From contig OZ252279.1 of NCBI GenBank assembly GCA_965250005.1, positions 1,290,001-1,322,000 of the forward strand: a stretch of DNA of 32,000 nt. The letters are read 5' to 3'. The translations under genes were made by a program, and so were the position numbers. Source of the stretch: Demequinaceae bacterium (GTDB lineage Bacteria; Actinomycetota; Actinomycetes; Actinomycetales; Demequinaceae). Under the pieces are notes generated by a model, which was not told where the DNA came from, searched no databases, and was given only the letters and a program-made list of their open reading frames with translations. Position 1 is the stretch's first letter, and every line of letters starts with the position of its first letter. This document shows, one piece after another, positions 4,667-11,378 of the stretch.

Positions 4667-6178
4667 CTAACTTACCTTCCCCGTGGACGCGGGCTTCGCC
4701 TTCGGGCTGGCTTTGGTCTTCTTCGCAGCGCTAGCACTGACGGTCGACGGCGCAGCCGTCCACCGCACCCGCATCAGCCCAACCGAAGCAGCAATGAACA
4801 GGACGAGCACGGGGAGCACCTCAATGAGCATCCTGTTGAGCGAGTCGTACAGGAACACGTGGTACGCGCCATCTCGAGCGTAGGCGAGGACAAATACGAG
4901 CGGAATGAACGTGGTCCACGGATACCTGAGCGCCTCGCTTCCTGCGAACCGGCCCGCGGCTAGCAGCCCCAGCCCGACGGCAAAGTACACCCACACAGTC
5001 CAGCCCCACACGCCATCGAAAGGAGAAAACAGTGTGCTCGCCGCCGCAAGGCTGTCCTCAAGGATTGCCGAGTCGCGCAGTGCGAGCGCACCGAGTAGTG
5101 CCCACAGGCCCAACTCGCCCGCCGCAGGCAACCAGCGCCGGAGTTCTCCAAGCGACGCCTTCAACGCCGCGAGGCCAGCGCCAAGCGCCACCACGGCCAC
5201 CGCGCCAAGCACAAGTGACGACAACGGCGCCGTCTCGTCCCGCGACAAGGCTCTGGCGACGACGAAGGTGTTCCACACGAGCACGGAGCCTCCGAACGAA
5301 AACAGCACCGCCGCCATCGGGCGCCCCTTCGCCTCCGCGCGCGCGACATACGGGAACAACGCGAGGGCAATCAGAGGTGCGCCCTCTGCGCGCGTGACGA
5401 CGGCCGCGGGGATCAACACCGCCATCACCAGTGCGAGCGTGATGTGTGGAACTGGCGCCTTGGAGATCGCCAGCCACGCGCATCCGGCAACGGCCATCAC
5501 GACCGCACCAACGAGGAGGTGCCCGTTGATGTAGAGAGCGTGAAAGTCGAACCGATTGACGGTCGCAAGTGCCGCGGCTCCGAGTCCCCCGAAAACTCCT
5601 GCGGTGATCGCGTCGCGTCGTCCGTCGAACCCTCGGAGTAATAGCCATACGAGCGTGGCAAGGCTCGCAAGCGCGATCAGAGGCGTGGCCGACCGCATGT
5701 AGTACGAGCCGTCAATCCCGGACATCGCGTGCAGATACGGCACGCCAATAAGTCGCGTTTCGATCAGTGAGAGGCGCACCTCCTCGTCATAGCCGCCGCC
5801 TGCGAGCAACTGCCCAAGGTTCAAGTAATCGAAGGAGTCCACATGCCACTTGACGAGGTTCTGACCAACAAAGACAAACACCAAGCTAAGCGCGGCGGCA
5901 GCTCCCAGACCGACGTCGCGCCAATGAACGCGGAGGGCAGTATCATCCTTTGCCGACGCCACCCACCAAACCGTCGCTCCGGCCAAACTCAGTGCCAGTG
6001 CTATCAGCGGATGGTTAGGAAGCGGCGTCACCACGAGCACGAGCCCGACCGCGATGTACGCCGCCACGCCAAGCAGGAATCCCATGGGGCCTACCACCCA
6101 GCCCCGGAGCCCAGACAGCCGCGCCATCGCGGCACCAGAAACTAGCCAACCAAGGACAACCAGACTCTCGAGGATCAT
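4667..6178 (-). CDS. Uncharacterised polytopic membrane protein, paralog A (about 503 aa)
   Basis: The ORF is hydrophobic throughout, with at least a dozen TM-length segments. The start ATG at 6176-6178 forms an ATGA overlap with the stop of the upstream gene; the track start at 6202 is 8 codons further up. It is colinear with ORF 9271..10755 and shares blocks such as NRFDFHALYINGHL, VVTRAEG and [17 protein letters not shown]. It has a Lys/Ala/Ser/Thr/Pro-rich C-terminal tail (SASAAKKTKASPKAKPASTGKVS). No family signature was recognised. Confidence 0.8.
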   Translation of the reverse strand: MILESLVVLGWLVSGAAMARLSGLRGWVVGPMGFLLGVAAYIAVGLVLVVTPLPNHPLIALALSLAGATVWWVASAKDDTALRVHWRDVGLGAAAALSLVFVFVGQNLVKWHVDSFDYLNLGQLLAGGGYDEEVRLSLIETRLIGVPYLHAMSGIDGSYYMRSATPLIALASLATLVWLLLRGFDGRRDAITAGVFGGLGAAALATVNRFDFHALYINGHLLVGAVVMAVAGCAWLAISKAPVPHITLALVMAVLIPAAVVTRAEGAPLIALALFPYVARAEAKGRPMAAVLFSFGGSVLVWNTFVVARALSRDETAPLSSLVLGAVAVVALGAGLAALKASLGELRRWLPAAGELGLWALLGALALRDSAILEDSLAAASTLFSPFDGVWGWTVWVYFAVGLGLLAAGRFAGSEALRYPWTTFIPLVFVLAYARDGAYHVFLYDSLNRMLIEVLPVLVLFIAASVGLMRVRWTAAPSTVSASAAKKTKASPKAKPASTGKVS

Positions 6179-6807
6179 GGCTTCACCTCTGGGGCATACC
6201 AATCGGTGAGGGACGCCTCGATGATCAGGTTCTGGTAGTCGAACGTTGAGCCCTCACGGGCCTCCGGCACGTGGAGCATGATAAACACCCGGGGTGGCAC
6301 CGGTTCGGCGCCAGCCCGCGCCTCCGCAAGAGCCTCGAAGACGAACGCATCAGTGCTCGACCCGGGCGCCACGACGCCGTTTTTCGGGTCAACAATGACA
6401 AGCCACGGCGCGCCGAATCCTGAGGCTCCTTGGCCGCTTGCAACGATCTGGCCACCCGGGCGAATGTTGGCAAGGAGCGCGCTGCCGTCGCCCGGCCAGG
6501 CCACGATCTCCGCGGAGTGAGCCAGCGCCATGAGTCTCAACGAATTCTCGTGCGCGCCCGCGCCGCCGACCTCAGGGATGACGAAAGTTGAGCCCGGCGC
6601 TATTTGCGCGAGCGCCACGTAGAGGTCGTAGCGCGCGCGTGAGTTGATGTCTGTGATCAGCGCTATCTCGAGAACCTCATCGTGGGGGTACTGCTCGAAC
6701 CCTTGGAAGTTGTGAGGCAATTTGTCATCGAGGTTTTGGAAGCCCACCAGATTCACGGTGATCAGCGCCCCCAGTAGTAACGCGCCCGGCAATCGAGACC
6801 GCAGCAT
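6175..6807 (-). CDS. Uncharacterised N-terminally anchored or secreted protein, paralog A (about 210 aa)
   Basis: I prefer the internal Met at 6807 (MLRSRLPGALLLGALITVNLVGF, a signal or anchor). The track ORF extension to 7068 would overlap the ask start on the other strand. It shares the blocks IAPGST, GAPWLV and REGSTFDYQNLIIEASL with ORF 10752..11378. Confidence 0.7.
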   Translation of the reverse strand: MLRSRLPGALLLGALITVNLVGFQNLDDKLPHNFQGFEQYPHDEVLEIALITDINSRARYDLYVALAQIAPGSTFVIPEVGGAGAHENSLRLMALAHSAEIVAWPGDGSALLANIRPGGQIVASGQGASGFGAPWLVIVDPKNGVVAPGSSTDAFVFEALAEARAGAEPVPPRVFIMLHVPEAREGSTFDYQNLIIEASLTDWYAPEVKP

Positions 6808-6912
6808 CGCGGGCTGCCAGAGAGAATTCTCCACTGAAGTCTCCAAGCCTGAGGATCGGCCCGACGCTACCACAACGTCCCGCCGGGTTTCTGGCGCAAG
6901 CGCGCTACGCAC

Positions 6913-9299: not shown

Positions 9300-10755
9300 G
9301 GGCGCTCGCCAGGGTTGGGGCGACCACCCGAGTAGGGGAAGCCTCGCTCAGGCGGCTGAGCGCGATGGCACCCACAAACAACACGGCGACGGGCACTACT
9401 TCGATTAGCATCCTGTTCAGAGAATCCGCATGCGCCACTCGAAAGGCCGAGCCGCGCGCATACGCGGTCAGCAACATCAGGGGGAAGAACGTCGTCACGG
9501 CAAACCTCAGGGCAAGCGTGCCGGCCGCGCGGCTCGCCGACGTCGCGACCAGCGCAAGCACAGTGACGAGCAAGAAGGCGGACCCCCAGCCACCAGAAGG
9601 ATCCACTGCGTTGATGTACGTCGCGTTGACGCTGTCACGCAGGATTTGCGGATTGTGAATCGTAAAGGCGACGAGGGCGGCCCACAGCAGTGCCTCGGTG
9701 ACGCCCGGTGCGCGGTATAGCACCATTAAACGGCCGCGCCTGTCGAGCACGAGCGCCGTCACCGCAATCGCCGCACCAGCGATCACGAGACCGCCCGCCC
9801 GAGTCGCGGACTCATCATGGGATGTCTCCACGATGAAGACCAGCGTGTTCCAGAGGGCCATCGAGAAGCCGAGCACGAGCGCTGCGGCTTTTCTCATCCA
9901 CGCTTCCGCCCGCGCACTGGCGTAGAGCGGGATCAACGCCAGGCCCGCGAGCAGCACACCCTCCGCGCGCGTCGTGACAATCACCGGGACGGCCATCATC
10001 CCGATCACGAACAGTGACGTTGAAACGCTCGCGGGCTCGGTGGTCGCGAACCACACGGCGGCGACAATCACGAGAAGCATCGCGGCCACAATCAAGTGTC
10101 CGTTGACGTAGAACGCGTGAAACACGAATCTATTCATGGTGCCGAGCGAGAGAATCGCTAGGCCGGCAACGGCCCACGACGCGATGAGTCCGCGCGATGC
10201 CCCGTACTTCTGAACGAGCAACCAACCTATGGCGGCGAGCAGCGACACGGCCAGCATCGGCGTCAAGGATGGCAGAAAATACTCGCCGTTCAGCTGACCC
10301 GCCGTGTGGACCGCCGGCGTGCCGAGCAAACGCTTCTCAAGTATCAGGTGATCTGCTGCATCCAGATAGCGATCCGCGGCGAGCATGGCGCTGGCCTTGA
10401 TTTGAACCAGCGAGTCGATGTGCCAAACGTACAAGTGTGACGCCCGGATCGTTGCTACGAAGCCGGCGAGACTGACCACGGCACCAATGGCGAGAACAGG
10501 CGACACACCGAGCGAGCGAGCGCGGTTCTGAGCGTGCGCCCACAGGCCGAGTGGAAGTGCGAGTGTCAGAGCGATGGTCAGCACCGGGCTTCCCGAAAGG
10601 GGCGTTGCCAGCTGAACAAACGTAATCACGACGTAGACGGAAATTCCTGCGATAAACCCGAACGGAACCAGTCCCCAGCCACGCATTCCCGAAAACGACG
10701 CGACCGCCATACCCGACACAAGCATCGCAACCATCGCCGCTGTTTCAGCGATCAT
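9271..10755 (-). CDS. Uncharacterised polytopic membrane protein, paralog B (494 aa)
   Basis: Colinear with 4667..6178. Shared blocks are [49 protein letters not shown] and [21 protein letters not shown]. An ATGA overlap joins it to the upstream gene at 10752-10755. Its 3' end overlaps the asd 3' end convergently. Confidence 0.8.
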
Positions 10756-11378
10756 GACGCACTCCCGGCGCCAGTCGCCTCATCAAGCAGCGACGCCTCA
10801 ATGTAGAGGCGCTGGTAATTCCAGCTGCTCCCCTCGCGCGGCACCGGCCAGTGCACGTAGACGAACTCTCGTGCGCCCAGGTAGAAGCTGACATCTCCCG
10901 CCAAGGCGAGGCTCAGAAACGCCTCAGGGTCAACAGCGGAGGCTTCGGCGTCTTCGACAAGCACCATCCACGGCGCTCCTCGCCAGCCACCAGGGCCAGC
11001 AGCGATCACATTTCTTGTCACGTCCAATCCGGACAATTGATCTGCGCTTGACCCCTGGTGCCAGACGATTTGCGCTACTGCTCCAAACGAATACATGCGT
11101 TGACGCGTCGGGAGATCTCCAGCGAGCTCCGGCGCGCTCATGGTGACCGTCGATCCCGGAGCAATGAGGCCGACCACGGCGTGCGGCGAATACCGCGACC
11201 GGGCATTGGGGTCGAGCCGGACTGAGGCGGCGAGAATTCCCGGGTCCTCCTGCGCGTGGATCGCCCGAAAATAGATCCCGGCGCGGCTCTCGAGGTCCTG
11301 GAACGAATTCAGATTAGCGATCACTACGAGAGCCAGGCCAGCGCTCAGGAACATCGTCGCTGTGGAAAGTGACCTCAC
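10752..11378 (-). CDS. Uncharacterised N-terminally anchored or secreted protein, paralog B (208 aa)
   Basis: It has an N-terminal hydrophobic segment MFLSAGLALVVIANL. Shared blocks with 6175..6807 are SFQDL, LIAPGST, GAPWMVLV and REGSSWNYQRLYIEASL. Confidence 0.7.
   Translation of the reverse strand: MRSLSTATMFLSAGLALVVIANLNSFQDLESRAGIYFRAIHAQEDPGILAASVRLDPNARSRYSPHAVVGLIAPGSTVTMSAPELAGDLPTRQRMYSFGAVAQIVWHQGSSADQLSGLDVTRNVIAAGPGGWRGAPWMVLVEDAEASAVDPEAFLSLALAGDVSFYLGAREFVYVHWPVPREGSSWNYQRLYIEASLLDEATGAGSAS

Follow-up and report, generated by a model that had tools for sequence, protein, structure and literature searches.

Two old paralogous gene modules in a Demequinaceae bacterium probably encode a split, two-subunit GT-C-type glycosyltransferase

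Glycosyltransferases of the GT-C class build and decorate the glycans of bacterial envelopes, and EmbA-C, the Aft enzymes, ArnT and PglB are among the targets relevant to drugs and vaccines. The class is defined by a domain of 7 to 13 helices together with a small extracytoplasmic domain, usually after the first transmembrane helix (TM1), and by the use of lipid-linked donors (PMC11127046). In three-component extracytoplasmic glycosylation, polyprenyl-phosphate-sugar synthases make the donors for GT-C transferases (PMC11127046). New GT-C families are still founded one at a time; GT136 was added in 2024 (PMC11127046). Here, we analyze a stretch of 32,000 nucleotides (hereafter the window) from a Demequinaceae bacterium (GenBank assembly GCA_965250005.1, contig OZ252279.1, positions 1,290,001 to 1,322,000 of the forward strand), which carries two copies, A and B, of a module made of one gene for a small anchored protein and one gene for a large polytopic membrane protein. 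We propose, with a probability of about 0.6, that these old paralogous modules encode split, two-subunit GT-C-type glycosyltransferases of an unclassified family, acting on an envelope glycopolymer with a polyprenyl-phosphate-sugar donor. Most likely, they are a branch, so far uncatalogued, of an enzyme class that is already known, and not a novel type of system. The genes concerned are arranged as follows.

4667-6178, minus strand: large A, open reading frame (ORF) of 503 amino acids (aa); predicted GT-C-type glycosyltransferase with 15 transmembrane (TM) helices and a K/R-rich C-terminal tail
6175-6807, minus strand: small A, ORF of 210 aa; predicted N-terminal signal-anchor helix and extracytoplasmic domain of about 180 aa
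6967-8238, plus strand: ask, between modules A and B
8235-9299, plus strand: asd, between modules A and B
9271-10755, minus strand: large B, ORF of 494 aa; paralogue of large A, identical to database protein P0007
10752-11378, minus strand: small B, ORF of 208 aa; starts at a GTG, with the ribosome-binding site GAGGA located 6 nt before it

All four module ORFs are intact. The junction between the small and large genes is an ATGA stop-start overlap in both modules, read directly in the sequence, through which each pair is predicted to be translationally coupled. The coordinates, strand, sizes and overlaps given by the initial annotation of this DNA were confirmed from the ORFs and the sequence, and every motif block that it listed as shared between the copies is present in our BLASTP alignments. 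The large proteins are 36% identical end to end (E 5e-80) and the small proteins 31% identical over 191 aa (E 6e-24), a likeness that, judged from these alignments, lies far beyond chance.

An AlphaFold2 model of large A, built from a 142-sequence alignment, reached a predicted local distance difference test (pLDDT) of 93.4 and a predicted template modeling score of 0.93; an earlier model from 6 sequences had a pLDDT of 50 and was discarded. The protein is modeled as almost all-helical, with 15 membrane-spanning segments and a single long loop (residues 107 to 163) that holds four short helices. In a Foldseek comparison with the PDB, ranks 1 to 14 were all GT-C glycosyltransferases (probability 0.54 to 1.00), including eukaryotic STT3 (6ftg, 9n9j, 8agc and 8pn9), PglB (5ogl, 6gxc and 3rce), ArnT (5ezm and 5f15) and AftA (8if8), and all non-GT-C matches had a probability of 0.13 or less. 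The polytopic membrane domain of the model is structurally similar to solved GT-C enzymes, and the large protein very likely has a GT-C-type fold.

The topology of the large protein was predicted by applying the AlphaFold2 helix boundaries to the 142 sequences and using the positive-inside rule. The odd-numbered loops and the C-terminal tail contain 13.5 K+R over 67 residues (net charge +7.8), and the even-numbered loops contain 9.9 K+R over 124 residues (net charge -0.9). This pattern therefore points to an N terminus located outside and a K/R-rich tail located inside. Four residues, D114, H220, R263 and R449, are invariant in 142/142 sequences, and E4, R142, Y216, N218, E265, S376, N383, W391, R435, R440, D445 and S446 are present in at least 90% of them. 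On the predicted topology, every one of these invariant or near-invariant residues lies on the outer membrane face. D114 opens outer loop 107-163, which follows TM4, so that the large protein has a conserved acidic residue in a first long extracytoplasmic loop with short helices, as expected of a GT-C enzyme. In the model, this Asp and the nearby basic residues would form a GT-C active-site layout. Taken together, the fold, the topology and the profile comparison with ArnT described below imply that the large protein is extended at its N terminus by three helices that canonical GT-C enzymes do not have. A weak match to the Pfam family DUF6541 covers exactly these helices, which suggests that this family shares the extension. 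The large chain alone does not have the canonical GT-C_A architecture, given its outside N terminus, its three extra helices, its cytoplasmic C terminus and the absence of a soluble domain; according to the model, this architecture would be restored only by adding the small protein.

The small protein accompanies the large one in every module examined. Using hidden Markov models (HMMs) of both families on all fetched loci (given here with L numbers), we found a small-family ORF immediately upstream of the large gene in every module for which upstream sequence is available. These approximately 29 modules comprise A and B of the window, L001 and L027, two each in L002, L017 and L018, L005 to L013, L015, L019, L021, L023, L025 and L026 (two each in L019 and L026), and the fused case L020; L004 is the same contig as L017. 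Small A itself matches the small-family HMM at 2.7e-104. Because homologues lie directly upstream of the large gene in all of these related loci, the small ORFs are real genes. The small proteins are far more divergent than the large ones (17 to 33% identity). What they retain is a basic segment at the N terminus, a single hydrophobic helix in which an Asn is conserved, and the loose motifs APGS, G.G...W and D/E-x-SLL.

Two homologues are natural fusions of the large and small proteins, P0036 (704 aa; L019, 179-2293; small-domain E 1.5e-33) and P0147 (648 aa; L020, 607-2553; small-domain E 3.2e-14). In both, the large domain and its basic cytoplasmic tail precede the anchor helix and the soluble domain of the small protein. 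P0147 is a solitary fusion, and L020 has no separate small gene ahead of it; P0036 joins the first large to the second small protein of a tandem array. The fusions fit the predicted topology, since the 3 extra and 12 canonical helices would end in the cytoplasm and the small anchor would follow as a 13th helix carrying an outside domain. Together with the pairing seen in every module examined, they support the view that the small protein corresponds to the 13th helix and periplasmic domain of a canonical GT-C enzyme, detached from the main chain. On this sequence evidence, the small protein is probably an obligate partner of the large one and its detached C-terminal domain. Copy number appears to vary commonly, either for the complete module or just for the small gene: L025 (6421-8004) has two nearly identical small genes in tandem before one large gene, and L026 (7324-12161) has two complete modules with a Methyltransf_24 gene between them.

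The genomic neighborhoods point to glycan biosynthesis. Modules occur in glycan-biosynthesis clusters in six other contexts, at least five of them independent, with the following neighbors.

Salinibacterium clade (L005-L007 and L010; L011, of the same clade, is too short to show neighbors): nitroreductase-like gene, LPG_synthase_TM membrane protein, 325-aa GT2, CsaB-like pyruvyl transferase
L026: two modules; 324-aa GT2, LPG_synthase_TM, GT1/GT4, methyltransferases, pyruvyl transferase, alginate-lyase-domain proteins
L025: UDP-glucose dehydrogenase, two GT2/GT1 fusion enzymes, methyltransferases, ABC2-type exporter
L013: Wzx-type flippase, AT3-SGNH acyltransferase, 1272-aa methyltransferase-GT2-GT1 protein, GT4
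L014: 340-aa GT2 directly downstream of the module
L008: GT4, alginate lyase

The GT2 proteins of about 325 to 340 aa have AglJ, dolichyl-P-hexose transferase, PpgS, PgfS and ArnC as best matches, and they align over nearly their full length with E. coli ArnC (E 1e-12 to 1e-21). An ArnC-like polyprenyl-phosphate-sugar synthase is thus found in three contexts (the L005 clade, L014 and L026). The L005 clade and L026 have both a synthase and a flippase candidate beside the module, and L014 has them in part. This context agrees with the three-component scheme of extracytoplasmic glycosylation in PMC11127046. The proposal, first made from the sequence alone, of a GT-C-like enzyme with an extracytoplasmic partner is therefore supported by the Foldseek matches, the topology, the natural fusions and the genomic context. 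Very large alginate-lyase-domain proteins, one of them fused to GT2 domains, adjoin the module in two unrelated loci, L008 (4300-6798), from a Glycocaulis metagenome-assembled genome, and L026 (1-6604), a metagenomic contig. The presence of the large family in an alphaproteobacterial assembly may reflect horizontal transfer or binning contamination.

In the clade of the window, the gene order is PBP1 (a penicillin-binding protein), metallophosphoesterase, tRNA-Pro(CGG), module(s), asd and ask (L001, L017 and L009/L027). Two tandem modules lie on the asd side in L017, L002, L018 and L019. In Demequina rhizosphaerae (L021), one module lies on the other side of ask, at the site of window module A, and is followed by an intact ABC transporter, recR and dnaX. 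The initial annotation had asked whether the two genes always occur together and always next to ask-asd: the pairing is conserved in every case examined, but the adjacency is restricted to the Demequina-like clade. Since the modules lie in glycan clusters elsewhere, we rejected a functional link to ask-asd, and their flanking position is a clade-local rearrangement or synteny without functional coupling.

Several observations weigh against the split GT-C assignment. No significant link between the large family and a GT-C family was obtained with sequence profiles. Neither the large nor the small family profile matched any PDB sequence, and the match of a large-family member to DUF6541 that was examined in detail (P0145) scored 24.3 bits, below the 29-bit gathering cut-off, and covers only profile positions 3-102 of 646. 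Comparison of the 142-sequence profile with E. coli ArnT by hhalign was not significant (probability 0.9%, E 0.058). The sole region aligned pairs TM4 of the family and WHVDSFDYL..LLAGGGY..TRLIGVP (pattern WHxDSxxYL..LLAxGxY..KRxLxxP) with ArnT TM1 and WQPDETRYAE..MLASGDW..LRYFEKP, the first-loop catalytic motif of that enzyme; we regard this pairing as a lead consistent with the fold result, not as independent proof. Moreover, the catalytic loop would come after helix 4, whereas in canonical GT-C enzymes it comes after helix 1. The two fusions were each seen on one metagenomic contig, and a 1-nt sequencing error could create P0036, as L019 is a tandem array. Finally, tblastn detected no GT2 synthase, flippase or other glycan gene in the 32-kb window; synthase and flippase are also absent from its syntenic relatives, in which the module lies among housekeeping genes.

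Could the large protein merely belong, as a diverged member, to one of the GT-C families already in Pfam (DUF2029/GT87, PimE-like or DUF6541), and the small protein be an unrelated conserved neighbor? In agreement with the earlier statement that neither protein could be placed in a named family, none of the four window proteins matched Pfam or NCBIfam, even at E <= 1, and scans that also took in 93 large-family and 19 small-family members gave nothing above threshold. The sources label the proteins "hypothetical protein" (Demequina rhizosphaerae WP_062524391.1, Salinibacterium species and the marine actinobacterium PHSC20C1), with the single exception of one Salinibacterium orthologue labeled "DUF2029 domain-containing protein," a point in favor of this explanation. 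DUF6541 (PF20176) is matched weakly by 6 of the 93 large-family members (best E 2.8e-6). However, GT87/DUF2029 (PF09594) has no match in the 93 members at E <= 0.01 or in the window proteins at E <= 1, DUF6541 does not match the window proteins, and the P0145 match stays below its gathering score, as noted above. Pfam PMT and PMT_2 match neither the window proteins nor the 93 members. The small gene is, in addition, linked to the large one in every module, apparently coupled to it in translation, co-duplicated with it and fused to it in two homologues, which makes an unrelated neighbor, and with it this explanation as a whole, improbable. DUF6541 has no known function and our literature search found nothing on it; the idea that it is a fused version of the module is without support, as no small protein matches it. 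The family is thus, as far as these models go, unclassified, with no Pfam, NCBIfam or CAZy label, and yet it is large. At E <= 1e-3, an exhaustive HMMER search with a 6-sequence profile recovered 878 clusters (50% identity), of which 284 also passed E <= 1e-30; the proteins almost always have about 480 to 510 aa. A word-indexed homology search returned five relatives of large A and none of small B, and strongly under-reported both families (5 and 7 hits).

About equally improbable is that the large protein is a Wzy-type polymerase or a WaaL-type ligase with the small protein as a Wzz-like co-polymerase, so that lipid-linked repeat units rather than single sugars would be polymerized or ligated. 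Such polymerases are polytopic, have about 400 to 500 aa, diverge strongly and mostly go unannotated; Wzz is likewise a periplasmic partner with an anchor; and L013 combines a Wzx-type flippase (Polysacc_synt) and several glycosyltransferases with no recognizable polymerase. Yet WaaL (7tpg) appears in the Foldseek results only at rank 22 (probability 0.10, TM score 0.19), with no Wzy or SEDS protein, as against probabilities of up to 1.0 for GT-C enzymes, and no Wzy_C or O-antigen ligase Pfam match was obtained. Furthermore, three contexts pair the module with an ArnC-like synthase of monosaccharide donors, and the pathway in L025 relies on an ABC2 exporter and so does not require Wzy. Least probable of all is a transporter, flippase or scaffold without glycosyltransferase activity and with an outer-face accessory protein: although the large protein is almost wholly membrane-embedded with short loops, its catalysis is a prediction and the window copies lie among housekeeping genes beside an ABC transporter remnant, the Foldseek matches to AmtB, MFS and PPase all have a probability of 0.10 or less, the conserved polar and charged residues (D, H, R, R, E, N and Y) are concentrated on the outer face, as is usual for an active site but not for a translocation path, and the remnant belongs to an unrelated neighboring operon that is intact in relatives.

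Returning to the split glycosyltransferase, the history of its two copies is that of an old duplication kept under selection, as the initial annotation had stated. Copies A and B are only 28 to 36% identical, versus 76 to 84% for housekeeping orthologues among related genomes, and orthologous tandem pairs exist elsewhere. Likewise, the large protein of D. rhizosphaerae is 40% identical to A and 33% to B, with ask at 76% and recR at 84%. Of 28 conserved family columns, 26 are kept in large A and 27 in large B, the family median being one deviation. The duplication is therefore old, and both copies look functional. Large A departs from the consensus by N383L (N in 135/142 members) and R440H (R in 137/142), and the Demequina protein at the same genomic position as A also lacks N383, having S instead. 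From this comparison, the two changes may represent a lineage-specific change in specificity. A recent or mobile-element duplication was rejected, given the 28 to 36% identity and the orthologous paralogue pairs of other organisms. In neighbor-joining trees, the first copies of tandem modules cluster together, as do the second copies (bootstrap 100/100 for the large and 100/96 for the small proteins); the modules therefore duplicated as units before those lineages split. The small-protein and large-protein trees mirror each other. The attachment of window copies A and B to these first and second copies has low bootstrap support (17 to 38%).

Based on these data, each module would form a two-subunit membrane glycosyltransferase working at the outer face of the cytoplasmic membrane. 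The small subunit would be translated just before the large one, by translational coupling, and, through contact with it, would supply in trans the 13th helix (its signal anchor) and the extracytoplasmic domain, whose role is probably acceptor binding or site closure. The large subunit, with its three extra N-terminal helices and its end in the cytoplasm after the equivalent of helix 12, would carry the active site. D114 would be the counterpart of the catalytic first-loop Asp of ArnT, PglB and PMT, on a face lined by H220, R263 and R449 as well as R142, Y216, N218, E265, D445 and S446, residues that plausibly bind the phosphate and the sugar of a polyprenyl-phosphate-linked donor. Cytoplasmic synthesis of this donor would fall to a GT2 synthase of the ArnC/GtrB type, and the product would then be flipped across the membrane; as the window holds no homologue of these partners, the donor pathway, if the model is right, would be encoded elsewhere in the genome. 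On the outer side, the sugar would be passed to an acceptor, which is most probably a glycopolymer of the cell wall or a secreted one. The two modules would be distinguished by their sugar, their linkage or their acceptor.

A bolder proposal, which we hold tentatively and at slightly less than even odds, is that these proteins constitute a new GT-C (candidate CAZy) family working as an obligate heterodimer. In such a family, the core has its N terminus outside and three extra helices, the last helix and the acceptor-binding domain have split off as a fast-evolving subunit, and module duplication provides specificity cassettes that vary glycan decoration in Micrococcales and other bacteria. If true, the split architecture would be a natural experiment in which the catalytic membrane core of a GT-C enzyme is set apart from its extracytoplasmic domain; it could help to show how such domains contribute to acceptor choice and offer a simpler core for structural work. 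The practical yield is modest, namely a new pair of HMMs for annotation and defined residues to mutate, with no new biological principle. Nevertheless, a family of at least 878 clusters at 50% identity without a Pfam, NCBIfam or CAZy label is missed, for that reason, by the annotation of glycan gene clusters.

Some details of the locus concern gene boundaries. The small A frame is open to 7068, 87 codons beyond the ATG at 6807, and so runs across the beginning of ask (6967). Judging from the sequence, translation could plausibly start instead at position 6834, where a GTG is preceded at 6 nt by GGAG, which is better placed there than for the ATG. Since homologues begin at the anchor helix, this is the true N terminus of small A, which leaves a divergent intergenic region of about 130 to 160 bp between small A and ask. 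At the other junction, the convergent 3' ends of asd (plus strand) and large B (minus strand) overlap by 29 nt (9271-9299), and a terminator scan found no terminator-like site at this overlap; L001 has the same arrangement with 44 nt (9430-9473). Between the metallophosphoesterase gene and small B lies the tRNA-Pro(CGG) gene (11553-11627, minus strand), which holds the same position in L001 (7083-7157), L017 (7130-7204) and L009 (2290-2364). The module thus occupies a conserved position directly after a tRNA gene, possibly the place of an ancient insertion.

Just downstream of large A, a 107-aa ORF (4328-4651, minus strand) encodes a truncated ABC-transporter ATPase that covers positions 3-44 of 137 of Pfam ABC_tran, Walker A included. 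It is 61 to 68% identical to the N terminus of the intact ABC_tran gene at the same relative position in D. rhizosphaerae L021 and in L017, where an ABC2 permease follows. In the window, the remainder of the ATPase and the permease are gone, as are, relative to L021, genes for an aldo-keto reductase and an esterase, so that the fragment is directly adjoined by recR. By this comparison, the fragment looks like a deletion remnant or pseudogene. We rejected this ORF as a component of the system because it is a truncated remnant of an unrelated neighboring operon that is intact in relatives. Farther away, the gene for the small signal recognition particle RNA (1569-1665, plus strand; Rfam 63 bits) lies immediately upstream of dnaX, near two tRNA-Ser genes (CGA and GGA; 48-137, plus strand, and 1379-1466, minus strand), an arrangement that we judge to be ordinary housekeeping. 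On the other side of the modules, the class A penicillin-binding protein (12636-15203) has a low-complexity C-terminal (EPDP)n/PSP tail (12636-12700, minus strand), and the strand opposite this tail reads as a (GS)n run (12478-12861, plus strand).

How, then, does this module compare with described systems? Its closest structural counterparts are ArnT (GT83) and PglB/STT3 (GT66), single-chain GT-C_A enzymes with polyprenyl-phosphate-linked donors. Like them, the large protein has a polytopic domain, an invariant Asp that opens a long outer loop with short helices, and basic residues on its predicted outer face; with ArnT, it further shares the motif-level, nonsignificant match to the first-loop DE motif and the ArnC-like genes that adjoin its homologues. 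It differs in several respects: it shows no significant sequence similarity to ArnT or PglB/STT3, its N terminus is predicted outside, it has three extra N-terminal helices, and its chain would end in the cytoplasm after the helix-12 equivalent, the last helix and periplasmic domain being a separate protein encoded upstream. The family also has no WWDYG-type or other known acceptor motif.

The combination of GT2, LPG_synthase_TM protein and module in the Salinibacterium clade and L026 is reminiscent of GtrA/GtrB/GtrC, CsbB/GtcA/YfhO and the GT136 system, and the presence of several paralogous GT-C genes in one cluster recalls the serotype-specific Gtr enzymes. Here, however, the flippase candidate is of the LPG_synthase_TM type instead of GtrA, MATE or SMR, the transferase would be split into two polypeptides, and the module of the window clade stands alone, with no synthase or flippase nearby. 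AftA, itself among the Foldseek matches, and PimE/GT87 resemble the large protein as polytopic envelope enzymes of actinobacteria, and DUF6541 weakly matches its first four helices; nevertheless, no Pfam model reaches threshold for the present family, and, to our knowledge, the organisms considered here, as Micrococcales, do not have the arabinogalactan and lipoarabinomannan substrates of the Aft and PimE enzymes. By analogy, a polytopic catalytic subunit with an anchored extracytoplasmic partner from an adjacent gene also recalls the cellulose synthase BcsA-BcsB, whose periplasmic partner is obligate and has a single anchor, although BcsA has a GT2/GT-A fold and a cytoplasmic active site. The initial annotation had presented the modules as a candidate undescribed envelope system, which is overstated, since the GT-C superfamily is known and the modules represent a split branch of it that has not been classified. 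Neither the class of enzyme nor the logic of glycosylation is novel, both being well known; what is new here is a family without a model, a predicted 15-helix layout with its N terminus outside, and an obligate detached partner.

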